Source: an uncultured Gammaproteobacteria bacterium (GTDB lineage Bacteria; Pseudomonadota; Gammaproteobacteria; Steroidobacterales; JABDMI01). From it: 64,000 bases of DNA. This document shows positions 1,726 to 54,892 of this stretch, one piece after another. Position 1 is the stretch's first letter. Every line of letters starts with the position of its first letter. The notes beneath the pieces were generated by a model that saw only the letters and a list, made by a program, of their open reading frames with translations, was not told where the DNA came from and ran no database searches. A program made the translations under genes and the position numbers. The DNA is taken from the NCBI GenBank assembly GCA_905479875.1, contig CAJQOG010000060.1, positions 3,853-67,852 on the forward strand, read 5' to 3'.

Positions 1726-2736
1726 TTGAATACACAGAGTATAGAAAACATCATTAAAAACAACAAGATAACTAGATATTTGGCACTTTCTGCTGTTTTA
1801 GTATCAGGCTTGTTTTTAAGCGGCTGCGTGAGCGACCCTTACGAAGATGATTACGGATATAGCTCTTCGCAAGGTGAATATTACGGCGATTATGATGAAG
1901 GATACGTTGATGAGCCTAGTACTCAAGTATCAGTTTACGCTTCTAGTGGCTCGCATCGTCATCGCTCAAGCTACTATGATCCATATTATGCTCGTCATTA
2001 TAATGGTTATTATTTTGACCCATTTTATGGTGTGTACTACTCTTACGGCGCTGGAGCTTATGGAGCTTATGGTTCTTATCGTAGTGGTTTTGGGTATTAT
2101 TGCCCATTACATCGTAGCTACTTTGGGCACTCCCATTATCGCTCGCATAACCATAGTCGTCATCACAGAAATGTAATTCGATATGACAGAAATCATCACC
2201 GACGTGATGCCCGTAACCGCAATCACCGTAATCGTAATAATGTCATTCAACCCAATACTGAAGCTCTTGCATCAAATACACGTCGAGCAGCTGGAGATCG
2301 TAATAGAGAAACCAGAAACCCAAGACGCGATAGCAATGTCAGCTTAGGTCAAAGTGGCTTAGATGGATCAATCGCTACTCGAGACAGACAACAACGACGC
2401 ATTAGAAACCGTGACAGACAAGGCAATGCTCAAGTGTCTTCTCCAAGAATACCTACGACCGCTGAGCCTACGCAGAATGCTAATTCGCAAACACAAGCCT
2501 TGAGTGATGCACGGCGTAGACAAATTGCGGCAGCTCGTGCTGAACATGCTCGAAGAGCTGAGGCGAACCAACAAAACCAAAATTCAAACTCCCAACAAGA
2601 ACGTCGCGAGTCAAACTCGAACAACTCATCTCGACGCGAGCGAGCTAGAGAACAAAGTCAATCACGTCGATCTTCTAATTCTGACCGCTCAAGCAATAGC
2701 CGCTCAAGAAGTAGGTCACGAACCCAAAGACACTAA
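1726..2736 (+). CDS. low-complexity lipoprotein (Tyr/Gly-rich, His/Arg-rich, Arg/Ser/Asn/Gln-rich); function unknown
   Basis: TTG start preceded by AGGAG 7 nt upstream. Signal peptide with lipobox LSGC. Terminator hairpin directly downstream. Extreme composition produces long ORFs in other frames, but only this frame has an SD and a signal peptide. Confidence 0.6.
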   Translation: MNTQSIENIIKNNKITRYLALSAVLVSGLFLSGCVSDPYEDDYGYSSSQGEYYGDYDEGYVDEPSTQVSVYASSGSHRHRSSYYDPYYARHYNGYYFDPFYGVYYSYGAGAYGAYGSYRSGFGYYCPLHRSYFGHSHYRSHNHSRHHRNVIRYDRNHHRRDARNRNHRNRNNVIQPNTEALASNTRRAAGDRNRETRNPRRDSNVSLGQSGLDGSIATRDRQQRRIRNRDRQGNAQVSSPRIPTTAEPTQNANSQTQALSDARRRQIAAARAEHARRAEANQQNQNSNSQQERRESNSNNSSRRERAREQSQSRRSSNSDRSSNSRSRSRSRTQRH

Positions 2737-2765
2737 AATTCTTAAGCTTTAAAACTGATACACTT

Positions 2766-2793
2766 AAGCCCTATTTTTCAATAGGGCTTTTTA
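2766..2793 (+). terminator. rho-independent terminator after the low-complexity lipoprotein gene
   Basis: Stem AAGCCCTAT / ATAGGGCTT followed by a T-run. Confidence 0.6.
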
Positions 2794-2861
2794 TTTCCTA
2801 AGAATTTAATCATGGCTTAGGATAAATTTATTAGCTCGAATATTTGGTTTTCTTTTTTAAA

Positions 2862-3635
2862 ATGAATGTATTAAGCTGCAAAAATTTAAGCCTCGAAGTA
2901 GGACTTGGTAAAGACAAGCAAGTGTTACTAAAAGATTGTAATTTTGACACAAATTCTGGTGATGTACTGTGTATTCTAGGAAGAAACGGCAGTGGAAAAA
3001 CCCATTTACTCAAAACACTAGCAGGCTTAATCAAACCTACAGCAGGGTTAGTTTATTTACAAAATTCTGTCATTGATGATTTAAGTAGAAGAAAGATAGC
3101 AAAAATTTTAGGCCTAATCACTCAAGCTCATGATGATCCTTTCCCAATAAATGTTTTTGATCATGCTCTTGCAGGCAGGCACCCACATTTAGGTTTTTTA
3201 GATTGGGAAGGTGTACATGATATTGAGTTAACTCAACATGCTTTGAGTAGAGTGGAGTTAGATAAGAAGCAAACACAGAATGTACAAACACTTTCTGGAG
3301 GGGAAAGAAAGCGATTAGCAATTGCCCGCGTACTTACACAAAACCCCGATGTCTATTTATGGGACGAACCGACTAACCATTTAGACCCAGCTCACCAACA
3401 ACAAACTACTGATTTAATTTTAGATTTAAAAAGCCAAAACAAGACTCAAGTCATCGCCTTACATGATGTAAATCATGCTGCACGCATTGCTACACATATT
3501 TTATATTTAATGGACGATGGTCAATGGTGCTTTGGTACAGCTGAAAAAATGCTTAGCTTAGAAGCCTTAGAAGCCGTCTACGATACAAGTTTTAAAATTT
3601 TTGAACAAGCAGGGCAGCGTTATTTTGTAATGTAA
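2862..3635 (+). CDS. ABC transporter ATP-binding protein, iron-siderophore/cobalamin (BtuD/FepC-like) class
   Basis: Walker A GRNGSGKTHLLKTLAG, signature LSGGERKRLAIARVL, Walker B LWDEPTNHLD. ATG at 2862 is preferred over the TTG at 2844. Confidence 0.8.
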   Translation: MNVLSCKNLSLEVGLGKDKQVLLKDCNFDTNSGDVLCILGRNGSGKTHLLKTLAGLIKPTAGLVYLQNSVIDDLSRRKIAKILGLITQAHDDPFPINVFDHALAGRHPHLGFLDWEGVHDIELTQHALSRVELDKKQTQNVQTLSGGERKRLAIARVLTQNPDVYLWDEPTNHLDPAHQQQTTDLILDLKSQNKTQVIALHDVNHAARIATHILYLMDDGQWCFGTAEKMLSLEALEAVYDTSFKIFEQAGQRYFVM

Positions 3636-48677: not shown

Positions 48678-51305
48678 TTATTTACCAAACAAGTCTTTAA
48701 GCCTATCTTTTGCTTTTTGCTCAAGTTCGTTTTTTTTCTGCTCGACGGGATCCACTTCTTCTGGCTTAACTTCAGGCTCCTGACTAGGATCTTCCGTCTC
48801 AGGACTGGCTTGATCTTCAGGGTTTTGTGAAATGGGCTCCTCTGCCGGTGTTTCTACTGGCGCTGGCTCATTTCTAGCGCCACCGAAAAGTCCGCCTAAT
48901 TTATCTCCCAATTTATCTTTAATCTTGTCTTCTAGTTCCTCTTTAACTCTATCTTCCGTTTTTTTGCGAATGTAGCCTGCAACATCTGGTCTGATTTTTG
49001 GTTCAAATAAAGTGCCCGTGATTTTCACTGGAATACTTGCACCAACTAATTCATCTAAACTCAATTCAGCACTAGAGCCGGACACCGCAGATTTACTTTC
49101 CAAGATATCGGCATTAACAGAATAGTTAATCTCATTACTACTTAAGTTAAGTTGTCCATTACCCCTAATACGCATACGTGGCATTACGGCAAGAAAATCT
49201 TCATTTTTCAACAAGCCCTGAGCAACATTTGCTGTTGCTGATAATTGCTTGAAAGCGGTTTGCTTTGTATCTACAGCCTCATTAGTTTCCCGTCGCAATA
49301 AAGCTAAGGCATTAGCTACAGCGTAATTTAAGTCGAATCCTTGTAACACACCGTCATTTACTTTCAGATCCAAATCACCCAATGCATTTGCACGCATTTC
49401 TCCTACCGTTTTTCCACGCGTGTCTATAGTAATACGACCAGTGGTTGAACCTGTCATCATCTGCTCTGCCCACAAAGCATCGCCCATGGCAGCTAAATCA
49501 ATTCCCGTAATATTTTCAGCAGTTTGCAGTCTTGGAACATCACCACTAACATCCAAACGAATGTCACCAGAATATTGGCCTCCAAAGAAGCCTGCTTTAG
49601 AAGGAAAGACCCTTAATTTACCATCTAATAAATTAATACCCGCTTCTAAATCTGTAGTAATAATGTTGGCGACAGTCATTTTGCCAACTTTCAATGAGCC
49701 CTTTGCATCCCACTCTTTAAGTGGCGCTTGTGGAATAACAATGGCATTGATTGCAGCATCTTTAGCAGCTGAACTCTGCTTATCTTGTAATGCGTCCGCT
49801 TGTTTGGGTGGAATTAATCTATTTGCGTCTAAACTTTCAGCCGATAAATCGAAAGTGATTTTCTTCGCCTTTAAATCTGTAAGTGCCGCTCTGCCTAACC
49901 ACTTTGTCCCATCAATGAAAGCTGTCATCTCTGTAAGTGATGCACTATTCTTTGATGCTGTAAAATTTGCATCTAATTTGGCTTGAGTCCATGCTTCGTC
50001 AGACATTTCTGGTAATTCAATCTCTAGCCTAGCGGCTAATTCCTTAGGGGAAAACTCTGCAAGCTTAATGTTACCGGTTAAAGACAAATTATCATCGACT
50101 ATATTTTTTCCAGTTACCGAGCCCCTTATATCTAATTCAAAAACCTTGGCAACAAAGTCTTGTAAAAATACTTTATTAGTCTCCAAGCTTAAAGATAAAC
50201 TGGGTGCGGCAAGTTGAGCGCTTAATTCTTTTTCCGGCAAAGAATCACCTTTAGCTGTTCCGTTTAAGTTGAATGATTCCAAGCCCAAGGTTTTGTTCGC
50301 AAAACTCAAACGCTCCGCTTGTAAAGCACTTTGTAAACTATCACCTGGCAAGGCGCTGCCTTGTAATTCAACTTTAATATCCGCTTTAGGTAAACTCAGT
50401 GCATCATCCTTGTAAGTTAAAGTAGTGCCTTTAATTATAATGTCAGCTTGTTTAGCTAAACTTGGCATATTAGTTATATCAATTTGTATCTCTGGATTAC
50501 TTAATACTAGCTCACCCTGAATGTAGCGAATGTCAGTCACATCAATATCGGCATGGATATTTTCAGCTTGTGCATCTAGACCTTGAATATCCAGACTAAT
50601 CACTGGATCTGAAAATACGAAATTTTCAAGATCACTTAACTTGGTCTTACCCTTAAGTTTTACCTGACCTTGAATAACAGGCTCTTTAAGCTCAAAAGAA
50701 AACTCACTATCAATCGTAGTTTCTACTCCTGCTTTTAGCTGACCCGTAGAAAACTCCTTAATGGTCAAAGCAATGTCTTGTTTATTTAAGGCGTCAACCC
50801 ATTGCAAATTAGCATTTTGTAAACTAAAGCCTGCGATACTGCCCGTTAACCCATCACTATTGGAACTTGATGATGGAGTATTACTGGACTCAGGCGATTT
50901 AAAGCGTTCTTGAATATCATCCCAATTGCTTGTACCTTGTGCATTGCGCTCTAACCACACATCAACGCCATTTAATTGTATACGGTCGGCTACAACATTC
51001 TTCTTTATAAGCGGCATCAACTGTAAGCGAATAGAAGCTTGCTCGACAGTTAAAAATTTGTCAGCAGAAAAGCCTTCAGCATTACTTAATTCAGCATCGC
51101 TTAGTTCAACCCCTAACCAAGGGTAAAAACTGGCTTTAAGTTCGCCATTTAGACTTAAGTCTCGTCCGGTTTCATCTTTAACTGTTTGAATAATTTTTTC
51201 TTTATAAGAGTTTGCATCAAAAGTAGCCACAAAAATTGCTACAGCAGCTACTGCTAAAATCAGCACTAGAAAAAGTAGTCCAAATATCCATTTAATTACG
51301 CGCAT
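48678..51305 (-). CDS. asmA: AsmA family outer-membrane biogenesis protein
   Basis: N-terminal TM anchor, a long beta-rich repetitive body, and an acidic/Pro-rich tail. The asmA-mutY neighbourhood is known from other gammaproteobacteria. Confidence 0.75.
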   Translation of the reverse strand: MRVIKWIFGLLFLVLILAVAAVAIFVATFDANSYKEKIIQTVKDETGRDLSLNGELKASFYPWLGVELSDAELSNAEGFSADKFLTVEQASIRLQLMPLIKKNVVADRIQLNGVDVWLERNAQGTSNWDDIQERFKSPESSNTPSSSSNSDGLTGSIAGFSLQNANLQWVDALNKQDIALTIKEFSTGQLKAGVETTIDSEFSFELKEPVIQGQVKLKGKTKLSDLENFVFSDPVISLDIQGLDAQAENIHADIDVTDIRYIQGELVLSNPEIQIDITNMPSLAKQADIIIKGTTLTYKDDALSLPKADIKVELQGSALPGDSLQSALQAERLSFANKTLGLESFNLNGTAKGDSLPEKELSAQLAAPSLSLSLETNKVFLQDFVAKVFELDIRGSVTGKNIVDDNLSLTGNIKLAEFSPKELAARLEIELPEMSDEAWTQAKLDANFTASKNSASLTEMTAFIDGTKWLGRAALTDLKAKKITFDLSAESLDANRLIPPKQADALQDKQSSAAKDAAINAIVIPQAPLKEWDAKGSLKVGKMTVANIITTDLEAGINLLDGKLRVFPSKAGFFGGQYSGDIRLDVSGDVPRLQTAENITGIDLAAMGDALWAEQMMTGSTTGRITIDTRGKTVGEMRANALGDLDLKVNDGVLQGFDLNYAVANALALLRRETNEAVDTKQTAFKQLSATANVAQGLLKNEDFLAVMPRMRIRGNGQLNLSSNEINYSVNADILESKSAVSGSSAELSLDELVGASIPVKITGTLFEPKIRPDVAGYIRKKTEDRVKEELEDKIKDKLGDKLGGLFGGARNEPAPVETPAEEPISQNPEDQASPETEDPSQEPEVKPEEVDPVEQKKNELEQKAKDRLKDLFGK

Positions 51306-51535
51306 AGGTTTTTAGTCTTGTTTATGAAAAAAGTTAATAAATACCACGGTATTTATAGGTCAGTGTAACGCTTCAAGATGAATTTAAAATGAAGCAGATA
51401 GAAGTTCGACCTCTAAAACAGTGATTTTACGTCAGCTTGAGTGAAATATATTGTATTAAAGTCAATTGCGTAGATTTTTCAAGCAGTTGAAGCTTATATA
51501 CAGTCTCTACTAGTCTATTACGTTAAAATACACCC

Positions 51536-52228
51536 ATGGATAAAGAAAACTCGAACATTAAATTTCCGCGTAGCATTAAGAGCTTTGTTTTGCGTGAAGG
51601 CCGTTTTACCGAAGGCCAGCAGCACGCCTTTGAATTACATTGGAAAAGCTTTGGCCTGGATTACATAGACAAGCTTGTGGATTTACCCACACTATTCGAG
51701 CGTGAAGCGCCCACGATTCTAGAAATTGGCTTTGGCAATGGCGACAGCTTGGCTCAAATGGCTGAACAAAACCCACAAAATAATTACCTTGGCATTGAAG
51801 TGCATCGACCGGGTGCCGGTCAACTATTACAACAAATTGAGAAAAGAGAACTGAGTAATCTTCGTGTGAGTACTCGTGATGCGGTTGACGTTTTAAAAAA
51901 TCAATTACCTGAAAACAGCTTAAATGGCGCTCAAATCTTCTTTCCTGATCCATGGCCTAAAAAACGCCACCATAAACGTCGTATCATTCAAGGTGATTTT
52001 ATGACGCTATTGGCTAGCCGTTTAAATAAAAATGGCTTTGTACACCTGGCCACCGATTGGGCGCCGTATGCTAATCATATGTTAGAAGTTATGCAAAGCC
52101 ATCCAGACTATACAAATACTAGTGAAAATTTTATTGCCAGACCTGAATTTAGACCCTTAACTAAGTTTGAACAACGAGGTTTAAAACTTGGGCATGAGAT
52201 TTTTGATTTAATGTTTGTTAAAAAATAG
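51536..52228 (+). CDS. trmB: tRNA (guanine46-N7)-methyltransferase
   Basis: LEIGFGNG, NYLGIEVH, FFPDPWPKKRHHKRR, TKFEQRG. Confidence 0.9.
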   Translation: MDKENSNIKFPRSIKSFVLREGRFTEGQQHAFELHWKSFGLDYIDKLVDLPTLFEREAPTILEIGFGNGDSLAQMAEQNPQNNYLGIEVHRPGAGQLLQQIEKRELSNLRVSTRDAVDVLKNQLPENSLNGAQIFFPDPWPKKRHHKRRIIQGDFMTLLASRLNKNGFVHLATDWAPYANHMLEVMQSHPDYTNTSENFIARPEFRPLTKFEQRGLKLGHEIFDLMFVKK

Positions 52229-52230
52229 TT

Positions 52231-53286
52231 TTGTCTCAAACTTACGACAGCATCATTATCGGACAAGGCCTTGCTGGCAGCATTCTTGCATACCGTCTAC
52301 TTATAAGCGGAAAAAAAGTTTTAGTCATAGATAATCAACATCATGGCTCGTCATCAAAAGTTGCTGCAGGCATTATCAATCCTATCACTGGGTACCGGCT
52401 AATAACCAATGTTTTATTAAGCAAACAAAGAGAATGCTCTCTCCGCTTGTATAAAGAATTAGAAAAATTACTCAACCAGAAACTCGTTAGCGAATTAAAG
52501 CAGTTTCGTTTATTAAAATCTGAAGAACAAGCTAGCTTTTGGGAAAAACGCAAAAACCACTCTACCTATAAAGACTATGCTGGCGACTCATTTTCTAGTT
52601 TTGAGCCTTTTTTAAAAAACGATTTTGGTGTAGTAGAAATCCATAAAACTCTTCGTATACACACTTCGGAGCTTCTACTTAATTTAAAACAGTGGCTTAT
52701 TAAAAACAACAGTTATCTTGTTCAAAAAATCCATCACCATAAAATAGAAGTATCAACTAATAAAATTACAATAGGCCAATTAGAAAGCCAAAACATCATA
52801 TTTTGTGAAGGCTACCAAGTGCGCCATAATCCTTGGTGGAAACATTTACCTTTTAAATTATCAAAAGGTGAAATTTTAAAAGTTGAACTGGATAGACCAA
52901 TCAATGCGATGCTGAACTGGCGACAATGGCTGGTTCCTGATTCAGAAAGTGGTAAAACAGCATTATTGGGAGCTAATTATGAATGGGGTGAATTTTCAAA
53001 TGAAGACGCTTGCAATGTAACTAGTGAAGCAAGGGAGTATCTTATGATGCGCTTGGCAAACAATACAAAATTGAACGCTAAGCTTATTGAACAAACGGCT
53101 GGTGTTCGACCGACACCAACACACCGTTATCCATACATCGGAAGCCATAAAGAATCGAGTAATGTGTTTTGCTTTAATGGTTTTGGCAGCAAAGGTTGCT
53201 TAACCATCCCATATTACAGCAGTTTATTTGCAGACCATCTAATTAAGAATACTCCATTGCCTGAAGATGTTACTAGATGGCTATAG
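52231..53286 (+). CDS. DAO-family FAD-dependent oxidoreductase
   Basis: N-terminal dinucleotide fold IIIGQGLAGSILAYRL...VLVID. TTG start 2 nt after the trmB stop. The 3' end overlaps the next gene by 10 nt. Confidence 0.75.
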   Translation: MSQTYDSIIIGQGLAGSILAYRLLISGKKVLVIDNQHHGSSSKVAAGIINPITGYRLITNVLLSKQRECSLRLYKELEKLLNQKLVSELKQFRLLKSEEQASFWEKRKNHSTYKDYAGDSFSSFEPFLKNDFGVVEIHKTLRIHTSELLLNLKQWLIKNNSYLVQKIHHHKIEVSTNKITIGQLESQNIIFCEGYQVRHNPWWKHLPFKLSKGEILKVELDRPINAMLNWRQWLVPDSESGKTALLGANYEWGEFSNEDACNVTSEAREYLMMRLANNTKLNAKLIEQTAGVRPTPTHRYPYIGSHKESSNVFCFNGFGSKGCLTIPYYSSLFADHLIKNTPLPEDVTRWL

Positions 53287-53849
53287 AACATAAACCGCAT
53301 CTTACTCAACAAGCGCATAGCCTCATCCAGGAGCACTTCAAATCTCTTGATATGACCCCTAGACATGCCATTGATGCAACCTGCGGCAATGGGTTTGACA
53401 CTTTGTTTTTAGCCGAATTAGTTAATGAAAATGTGTACGCCTTTGATATTCAAGATATAGCGATTAAAAATACTCAAGAAATATTGCAAGGAAAAAACTT
53501 AGACCATAAAGTTAAATTAATAAAATCTGGGCATGAGAACCTTACAAATTATATTAAAAAACCAATTGACATCATCATGTTCAATTTAGGTTACTTGCCG
53601 CAAGCCGATAAGACTATCACCACAATCACTAATACAAGCATCACAGCTATAGAATATGCCTTGTCTTTACTTTCAAACCATGGCTTGTTAAGTATTCTTT
53701 GCTATCCAGGACACCTCGAAGGGAAAAAAGAAACCATGGCGACAAATGCTCTAGTTGAAAACCTGCCTGAAAAATTTAAGGTTAATAAGCATCAGTCGCA
53801 TTTCCAAAACTTTAAATCACCTATACTTTATCTAGTTAGTAAAATTTAG
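53277..53849 (+). CDS. YtqB/MnmM-family class I SAM-dependent methyltransferase
   Basis: DATCGNGFDTLFLAELV, VYAFDIQ, MFNLGYLPQADKTITT, YPGHLEGKKE. This matches my recollection of the 'putative rRNA methylase' (PF06962) family that includes B. subtilis YtqB. Confidence 0.75.
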   Translation: MAIEHKPHLTQQAHSLIQEHFKSLDMTPRHAIDATCGNGFDTLFLAELVNENVYAFDIQDIAIKNTQEILQGKNLDHKVKLIKSGHENLTNYIKKPIDIIMFNLGYLPQADKTITTITNTSITAIEYALSLLSNHGLLSILCYPGHLEGKKETMATNALVENLPEKFKVNKHQSHFQNFKSPILYLVSKI

Positions 53850-54892
53850 TCCTTACCTTTAAAATCAATAAAATTAGTTACAAATTTTTGAGCTATTTGA
53901 TTACCATTTTCTGCAGCAATTTCAATCCATCTTTCGCCCTTGCGTTTACTACTCCTACATTGCGTATCTTGAATTAACCTCAAACCAATTATTAACTGTG
54001 CCTGATGATAGCCATTTTTCGCCGACAACTCGAGTAACTCATTGCGTTTTTTATAATCAATTTTAGCTTTAAACAAACCTGGTACCGCAGTAGCTAATAA
54101 ATATTGAGCCCTCGAATTATCAGCATTTGCCATTTCAATAAATTTCGCGACAGAGGCTTTGCTATGTTCGGCTTGAACCTTAGACCATTTCTTTGTATGA
54201 AAAGTAATATCGTATGTTGCATAACGTAATGGAACTTGATTTGGAAGAGTTTCAAACAGTGGGTATTCAAATTTCTTTACTGCACGCATTGTTTCTACGG
54301 CATAACCTAAGCCTCGTGGAAACTCATCTAACAAATCTACGTCTACAACCTTGCCCTCAGCATTAATACTGTAACCAACGTTTATATAACCGTTGACTTG
54401 TTTCCTTCTGGCTGTGCTAGGGGCTTTGGGCTTAATTTGCTTAACGGCTGTGTATACTGGTTCTTTAGAGGTGAGATAGTCCTCTCGACTGCAAACAAAG
54501 GGTTGTAACTTACTTGTGTAACTTTGCGAACCATACTGCTCTTCTAAGTTCAAAAAAACCGCTTCAGATTCACTAGCTTGCGTGATTGATAATTTGTTTT
54601 TAGCATTAACTGTAGAATATTGCTCATTAAAACTATTAGCTATCTTCATCCATGCGTAAGCTTGCTCATAGCTTTGTTCAACATACACACCCTGAGAATA
54701 CATAAGGCCAATATTGTAAATTGCCTCTGCATTACCAACTGCAGCTAACTGCATAAACTCTCTGTAGGCAGATTCATGATCACCATTTGCATAATTATCC
54801 ATAGCACCAACAAAATCAGCATAAGAACTACTATTCACAGAGTTAACTAAAAAAACTGCAAAAACTATTAAAACTGAGTAAATGTATTTCAT
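53846..54892 (-). CDS. secreted Sel1-repeat protein with an internal TonB_C-like domain
   Basis: Signal peptide. Sel1-like repeats (GNAEAIYNIGLMYSQGVYVEQSYEQAYAWMKIA; GYHQAQLIIGLRL; ENGNQIAQ). The central segment INVGYSINAEGKVVDVDLLDEFP is TonB_C-like. Confidence 0.6.
   Translation of the reverse strand: MKYIYSVLIVFAVFLVNSVNSSSYADFVGAMDNYANGDHESAYREFMQLAAVGNAEAIYNIGLMYSQGVYVEQSYEQAYAWMKIANSFNEQYSTVNAKNKLSITQASESEAVFLNLEEQYGSQSYTSKLQPFVCSREDYLTSKEPVYTAVKQIKPKAPSTARRKQVNGYINVGYSINAEGKVVDVDLLDEFPRGLGYAVETMRAVKKFEYPLFETLPNQVPLRYATYDITFHTKKWSKVQAEHSKASVAKFIEMANADNSRAQYLLATAVPGLFKAKIDYKKRNELLELSAKNGYHQAQLIIGLRLIQDTQCRSSKRKGERWIEIAAENGNQIAQKFVTNFIDFKGKD

Follow-up and report, generated by a model that had tools for sequence, protein, structure and literature searches.

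A stand-alone FAD oxidase encoded with MnmM as a predicted unfused counterpart of MnmC in an uncultured gammaproteobacterium

How could a gammaproteobacterium complete the wobble nucleoside 5-methylaminomethyl-2-thiouridine (mnm5s2U34) when the fused bifunctional enzyme MnmC is not found in its draft genome? The question is raised by a 64,000-nucleotide (nt) stretch of contig CAJQOG010000060.1 (positions 3,853 to 67,852, forward strand; assembly GCA_905479875.1; hereafter the window) from an uncultured marine Gammaproteobacteria bacterium, in which the gene of a DAO-family flavin adenine dinucleotide (FAD) oxidase follows trmB and overlaps the gene of the methyltransferase MnmM (YtqB). Reading of split codon boxes is tuned by mnm5s2U34, whose final synthetic steps fall to a patchwork of non-orthologous enzymes. 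We consider it probable that the stand-alone FAD oxidase and MnmM together finish mnm5s2U34 and replace the bifunctional MnmC. A first-pass annotation of the DNA had already suggested such a non-fused replacement, which is supported by fusions, adjacency and co-occurrence of the two families and by a genome with MnmA, MnmE and MnmG in which neither MnmC nor MnmL was found. The genes concerned are as follows, with lengths in amino acids (aa) and SAM standing for S-adenosylmethionine.

51536-52228, plus strand: trmB, tRNA (guanine46-N7)-methyltransferase, the first gene of the unit, with a TAG stop at 52226-52228
52231-53286, plus strand: DAO-family FAD oxidase gene, 351 aa, with a TTG start and a TAG stop at 53284-53286
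53277-53849, plus strand: mnmM (YtqB family), 190 aa, with an ATG at 53277; predicted SAM-dependent methyltransferase converting nm5s2U34 to mnm5s2U34
53277-53286, plus strand: 10-nt overlap of the oxidase gene and mnmM in different frames, read from the sequence; putative translational coupling

In the proposed route, MnmEG and MnmA would build the 5-carboxymethylaminomethyl derivative (cmnm5s2U34) on wobble-uridine tRNAs, which by analogy with MnmM substrates would be tRNA-Glu, tRNA-Lys and tRNA-Gln. The 351-aa flavoprotein would oxidise the C-alpha-N bond of the glycine-derived carboxymethyl group with FAD and O2, and hydrolysis of the imine would yield 5-aminomethyl-2-thiouridine (nm5s2U34) and glyoxylate, as in the reaction of MnmC1, the oxidase domain of MnmC. 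MnmM, translationally coupled to the oxidase, would then methylate nm5s2U34 with SAM to give mnm5s2U34. The substrate, product and O2 dependence of the oxidase are inferred. The oxidase itself is a member of a distinct paralogous clade that shares the glycine-oxidase-like fold of MnmC1, and MnmM is not homologous to MnmC2, the methylase domain of MnmC.

The methylase, the oxidase and the pathway genes

The methylase had been assigned to the YtqB/MnmM family, and it indeed passes the MnmM equivalog model NF053511 with 190.4 bits (cutoff 135), scoring 145 bits on PF06962. Its closest solved relative is MnmM from Staphylococcus aureus (8H1A, E = 7e-33). The activity of MnmM from Bacillus subtilis requires K11, D34, N101, Y104, K110, Y141 and H144 (Cho et al., PMC9976899). 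Six of these, D34, N101, Y104, K110, Y141 and H144, correspond to D33, N103, Y106, K112, Y143 and H146 of the window protein, and all six show little or no variation among 20 MnmM proteins encoded beside oxidases of the same clade as the window oxidase (hereafter the DAO clade). By these sequence criteria, the window methylase is a bona fide MnmM, for which methylation of nm5s2U34 by SAM is predicted.

The genome to which the window belongs is a draft of 2.23 Mb in 202 contigs, estimated as 89% complete. MnmE and MnmA score above cutoff with 349 and 456 bits, as does MnmG, which a contig end truncates, with 525 bits. Since these three enzymes are present, the organism is predicted to be able to make cmnm5s2U. 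No PF05430 (MnmC2) match was found in the 89%-complete genome, nor did any protein score above cutoff as MnmC_Cterm or MnmL (YtqA), so that the other known enzymes for the last two steps were not detected. A canonical fused mnmC, which would have spoken against the first-pass suggestion, was thus not found in the draft.

The oxidase is recognized by PF01266 with 80.6 bits (cutoff 27.9) and falls short of the more specific curated models. Its top NCBIfam match is the ThiO model TIGR02352, with 74.5 bits where 250.8 are required; MnmC_Cterm (TIGR03197) requires 174.2 bits, and the oxidase reaches 51. All DAO-clade members tested lie between 51 and 88 bits on TIGR03197, compared with 522.6 for the MnmC1 domain from Escherichia coli. 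When that domain was compared with the window oxidase by BLAST, a 98-residue patch alone was aligned (E = 9e-5). By sequence, glycine oxidases are the best relatives of known structure (E = 2e-13), and the public annotations of its relatives read "glycine oxidase". The family is large, comprising some 1,200 clusters when grouped at 50% identity (E <= 1e-30). In quick maximum-likelihood trees, for which branch support was calculated solely as the Shimodaira-Hasegawa-like approximate likelihood ratio (SH-aLRT), 34 DAO-clade members including both fused and split forms grouped together at 99%, while canonical MnmC1 (97-99%) and true ThiO (98%) each formed their own clade. The trees and profile scores indicate that the window oxidase belongs to a distinct, well-supported DAO clade that is neither ThiO nor canonical MnmC1.

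The AlphaFold (AF2) model of the oxidase has a mean confidence (pLDDT) of 96.2, and the solved folds nearest to it are glycine oxidase, the iminodiacetate oxidase IdaA, CmiS2 and MnmC, the last with a Foldseek TM score of about 0.75. All four are known to act on N-substituted glycines by oxidising the C-alpha-N bond. Residues G11, G13, G247, R293 and G322 of the window oxidase align with G271, G273, G518, R567 and G619 of E. coli MnmC, which are FAD-site residues conserved at more than 98% (PMC3648344, Table 2); the five are common to ThiO as well and do not discriminate between the families. R293, an arginine of the carboxylate-binding type, is invariant in the DAO clade. K321 aligns with R618 of E. 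coli MnmC, and this position is basic in both the DAO clade and MnmC1 and an asparagine in ThiO.

Linkage of the oxidase clade to MnmM and likeness to known systems

The two families occur as single polypeptides in bacteria of other phyla. Among longer proteins containing MnmM, a search returned over 40 in which PF01266 is joined to PF06962, with lengths near 500-590 aa and from sources such as Mariprofundus, Planctomycetes and Verrucomicrobia; the same search recovered the known fusions of radical-SAM MnmL with MnmM. The window oxidase aligns over its full length with the N-terminal DAO half of the fusions (E = 2e-63, 1e-61 and 1e-37), and the order of the two parts is the same. In the trees, fused forms appear at no fewer than three places inside the DAO clade, interleaved with unfused forms. 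The window pair is the split form, comprising two open reading frames (ORFs) in different frames rather than a single polypeptide.

Such fusions are not new. Jaroch et al. list MnmC1/MnmM ("MnmC1-YtqB") fusions, for instance in Mariprofundus sp. EBB-1, and predicted from them that MnmC1 and MnmM convert cmnm5s2U to mnm5s2U, pending validation (10.1101/2023.12.21.572861). The fusions, that of EBB-1 among them, consist of the same two families with DAO at the N-terminus and MnmM at the C-terminus, and have the same predicted function; the DAO half of the EBB-1 protein is 32% identical to the window oxidase over the full length (E = 2e-63). They differ from the window locus, which has two genes with a 10-nt overlap and trmB ahead of them. 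The pairing of DAO and MnmM had thus already been predicted from fusions, and the window adds a new unfused member of the predicted route, so that the novelty is modest. Its value lies in being a clean unfused example of the FAD oxidase and MnmM route.

The gene order recurs beyond the window. Among 80 genomic loci carrying a DAO-clade gene, mnmM lies immediately downstream in 26, and the two are fused in 2 more; the pair is conserved as neighbours. Among the loci most similar to that of the window (identity of 36% or more; most carry the label Arenicella or are from metagenome-assembled genomes (MAGs) labelled Gammaproteobacteria), mnmM follows in 20 of the 21 that could be assessed. The same order is found in loci labelled Zetaproteobacteria, Bdellovibrionales, Methyloglobulus, Thiohalomonadaceae and Verrucomicrobiales, and an identical 10-nt overlap is shared by 16 of 25 DAO-mnmM loci, one of them zetaproteobacterial. 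Because the order recurs so often, with the fusions and the identical overlap, the arrangement is not due to chance. The nearest named relatives of both the oxidase and MnmM come from MAGs labelled Arenicella or Gammaproteobacteria. One locus (L023), on a contig labelled "MAG: Polaribacter sp.", has a DAO-mnmM pair 42% identical to that of the window with an Arenicella-like organisation and flanks; this contig may be mis-binned.

Of 300 genomes from an even sampling of the class, 15 contain the DAO clade and 15 contain MnmM, with 14 carrying both. In 13 of the 14 double carriers, the two are encoded on one contig within about 100 nt of each other or in one open frame. MnmC2 (PF05430) was found in 60 of the 300 genomes and coincides with the pair once, weakly (G191, 33 bits). 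With MnmC2 in 60 genomes and MnmM in 15, approximately three quarters of the sample show neither known nm5U methylase. A complex prediction for the oxidase and MnmM scored 0.00 and gave no verdict, and we count it as evidence neither way.

Compared with E. coli MnmC (MnmC2-MnmC1; PDB 3PS9, 3AWI), the window pair is predicted to catalyse the same two reactions, and its oxidase has the same fold with conserved FAD-site residues. However, the E. coli methylase is MnmC2, which is unrelated to MnmM, the two domains are fused in the reverse order, and the oxidases belong to separate clades (51 bits for the window oxidase versus 523 on TIGR03197). In B. subtilis and Streptococcus mutans, MnmM belongs to the same methylase family as in the window and is likewise encoded beside, or fused with, a demodifying partner. 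That partner, MnmL (YtqA), is a radical-SAM enzyme working independently of O2, whereas the partner in the window is an FAD oxidase. The first-pass annotation had stated that a separate DAO-family oxidoreductase was proposed for Bacillus, but we found no such paper in the literature searched; the validated partner of Bacillus MnmM is MnmL (10.1101/2023.12.21.572861; PMC13602947). "YurR" as a Bacillus DAO oxidase was dropped for the same want of a supporting paper. ThiO from B. subtilis (PDB 1NG3/1RYI) is the closest solved protein in both fold and sequence; its reaction, like the one proposed here, is a C-alpha-N oxidation of a glycine moiety, and the active-site arginine is shared. It differs in belonging to a separate clade, in its model's cutoff, which the window oxidase does not reach, and in its setting, as no thiazole pathway was found in the draft genome of the window and other carriers have a paralogous ThiO.

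Alternative explanations

Several observations weigh against a shared role of the oxidase and MnmM in place of MnmC. The absence of MnmC and MnmL is provisional because the genome is a draft, 89% complete and in 202 contigs. The oxidase fails the curated MnmC1 model and matches E. coli MnmC1 over one patch, and the branching order of the DAO clade, MnmC1 and ThiO is left unsettled by the trees. The counts from the class sample are uncorrected for phylogeny, and the exclusion between the pair and MnmC2 (1 of 14 versus 59 of 286, p = 0.32) goes in the expected direction without being significant. Furthermore, 49 of the 80 loci, mostly from Saprospiraceae/Chitinophagales, have a DAO-clade gene without a methylase nearby, and a complete genome of the same class (G044) carries such a gene without MnmM or MnmC2 anywhere. 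The last two observations, together with one genome having MnmM without the DAO clade (G213), also fit an alternative in which MnmEG produces nm5s2U directly by the ammonium route and MnmM works on it without an oxidase; the DAO protein, linked to mnmM for some other reason, would oxidise a small amine or amino acid with no connection to tRNA. For Chlamydia, a route with MnmM alone is predicted by Jaroch et al. (10.1101/2023.12.21.572861), and the failure of the oxidase on all specific curated models would suit this explanation too. Yet repeated independent fusions, the conserved 10-nt overlap and co-occurrence in 14 of 15 carriers are hard to reconcile with it unless the two proteins share a pathway, the same clade is linked to the unrelated methylase MnmC2 (see below), and a 2026 preprint doubts the ammonium route in vivo in E. 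coli. We regard this alternative as unlikely.

Confusion with thiamine biosynthesis is easier to address. The oxidase might simply be the glycine oxidase ThiO, lying beside mnmM by chance, since glycine oxidases are its nearest solved relatives in both sequence and fold, no NCBIfam model scores it higher than TIGR02352, and its relatives bear the name glycine oxidase in public annotations. Its score, however, is far below the ThiO cutoff, true ThiO forms a separate clade, and the asparagine typical of ThiO is a lysine at position 321. Neither ThiG and ThiH nor a ThiO above cutoff was found in profile searches of the 89%-complete genome, and in a 120-genome subsample of the class, all seven other DAO-clade carriers hold a separate ThiO elsewhere, scoring 275-320 bits. 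An identity with ThiO is therefore highly improbable in our judgement. A subtler alternative keeps the oxidase on U34 of tRNA and changes its chemistry: it could act on another side chain or give another product, such as a different xm5 derivative, so that the final nucleoside would not be mnm5s2U. The clade is as distant from MnmC1 as from ThiO, and details of the substrate could differ accordingly. On the other hand, an equivalog-level MnmM with intact nm5-recognising residues implies an nm5(s2)U substrate, which an oxidase cleaving the carboxymethyl group would supply, and the carboxylate-binding-type arginine is invariant. We give this possibility little credence, albeit somewhat more than ThiO, and prefer the completion of mnm5s2U34 by the oxidase and MnmM.

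At two of the exceptional genomes, the surroundings of the genes could be described. The DAO-clade gene of G044 (L137:2300-3436) has a GGDEF response regulator and rdgC as neighbours, both unrelated to the pathway. In G213, a 479-aa ORF without a Pfam family lies directly upstream of MnmM at a distance of 33 nt (L107:1423-1983 and 2016-3455); it may be spurious, as there are many overlapping ORFs, or it may encode another partner.

The wider clade and the setting of the locus

The DAO clade is also associated with MnmC2. In a sample of 151 Bacteroidia genomes centred on Niastella, in which the statistics are likewise uncorrected for phylogeny, the DAO clade was present in 111 and a stand-alone MnmC2 in 107. 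Both occurred in 94 genomes, the oxidase only in 17, MnmC2 only in 13 and neither in 27 (odds ratio 11.5, Fisher p = 2e-9). This sample includes the unpublished genome G415, which has both genes, and the unpublished genome G039 is one of the 121 genomes surveyed for ThiO; the conclusions are independent of either. In three genomes, MnmC2 (PF05430) lies directly upstream of, or overlaps, the DAO-clade gene on the same strand:

G329, L134:1206-2954, same strand: MnmC2 and DAO-clade gene
G420, L135:1146-2865, same strand: MnmC2 and DAO-clade gene
G457, L136:1224-2952, same strand: MnmC2 and DAO-clade gene

In G404 and G360, the two neighbouring genes point away from each other, at a distance of about 1.1 kb. 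The MnmC2-adjacent oxidases fall inside the same DAO clade in the tree, match the window oxidase at E = 5e-46 and, with 62-88 bits, remain below the TIGR03197 cutoff. Its association with two unrelated methylases, MnmM and MnmC2, supports a role of the DAO clade in the reaction that precedes methylation.

Cho et al. (2023) reported that an MnmC(o)-like enzyme is absent from Bacteroides, which has an orphan MnmC2, and expected one to exist. The DAO clade may be this missing MnmC(o) of Bacteroidia/Bacteroidota, and we found no paper on its pairing with MnmC2 in Bacteroidia in the literature searched. We incline slightly towards a still broader interpretation, in which the DAO clade would supply bacteria in general with a stand-alone oxidase for cmnm5(s2)U. 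Its partner would be the nm5U methylase present in each lineage, namely MnmC2 in Bacteroidia and MnmM in several lineages of proteobacteria, verrucomicrobia and planctomycetes, and the clade would be the missing MnmC(o) of lineages with an orphan MnmC2 or a presumed ammonium route. The curated models (TIGR03197, CDD) miss the clade, so that its carriers count as devoid of MnmC1 in surveys. Should the clade be the demodifying enzyme, many genomes now seen as "MnmC2-only" or "MnmM-only", most Bacteroidia included, would need no disputed ammonium route, and the database label "glycine oxidase" could be corrected for proteins of this clade.

Other neighbours are seen in Saprospiraceae/Chitinophagales. 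In 25 loci (including L048, L051, L053, L057 and L058), the DAO-clade gene is directly preceded by a 118-aa gene of the YjbR family (PF04237), and a very large MG2-domain protein is encoded downstream in 19. The neighbours in loci without MnmM, namely YjbR, the MG2 giant, an MFS-acyltransferase and a methyladenine glycosylase, gave no functional clue.

Within the window, the three plus-strand ORFs, their coordinates, the TTG start and the 10-nt overlap described in the first-pass annotation were confirmed at every coordinate, and the assignments to TrmB, DAO and MnmM hold in Pfam and NCBIfam profile searches. The remaining features that delimit the unit are listed here.

52226-52233, plus strand: trmB/oxidase junction, consisting of TAG, a 2-nt spacer and TTG, read from the sequence
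48678-51305, minus strand: asmA-family gene, divergent, the upstream border of the unit, from the ORF listing and a family search
53846-54892, minus strand: Sel1/TonB_C-like gene, convergent, 348 aa, the downstream border, with a Sel1 repeat and a weak TonB_C match

The 3' end of the convergent gene overlaps mnmM by 4 nt. The TTG of the oxidase gene is credible as a start because it is the first start codon past the upstream in-frame stop, the FAD motif GxGxxG begins at residue 11, and alignments with homologues begin at residues 1-6. A scan of 51250-54050 for promoters and terminators returned fewer sites than in shuffled sequence and is uninformative. In three marine metatranscriptome runs from one study, short contigs were identical to trmB at 51624-51830 and to the oxidase gene at 52885-53064 and 53121-53282; none of the contigs from these runs spans a gene junction, and carry-over of DNA is possible. 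The genes trmB, the oxidase gene and mnmM form one plus-strand unit, for which we infer co-transcription.

TrmB itself is unambiguous, with 201.8 bits on the equivalog model TIGR00091 (cutoff 112.65) and 198 bits on PF02390. In the same-genus genome G301, a trmB 87% identical to that of the window is followed after a 5-nt gap by the oxidase gene (66% identity), which is cut by the contig end; in a second genome of the genus, G302, the contig ends at a distance of 22 nt from mnmM. The trmB-oxidase junction in the former and mnmM in the latter establish that the locus is retained within the genus. The linkage to trmB had been taken as a functional hint, of which the adjacency stands, here and in G301, and the wider conservation does not, as trmB was beside the DAO-clade gene in none of the 80 other loci. 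Because it is confined to the genus and missing in all of these loci, the linkage is genus-specific and carries little functional weight. Both other assemblies of the genus break at this locus, G301:C90 (L102) inside the oxidase gene and G302:C74 (L105) 22 nt upstream of mnmM, which may reflect strain variation or an assembly problem.

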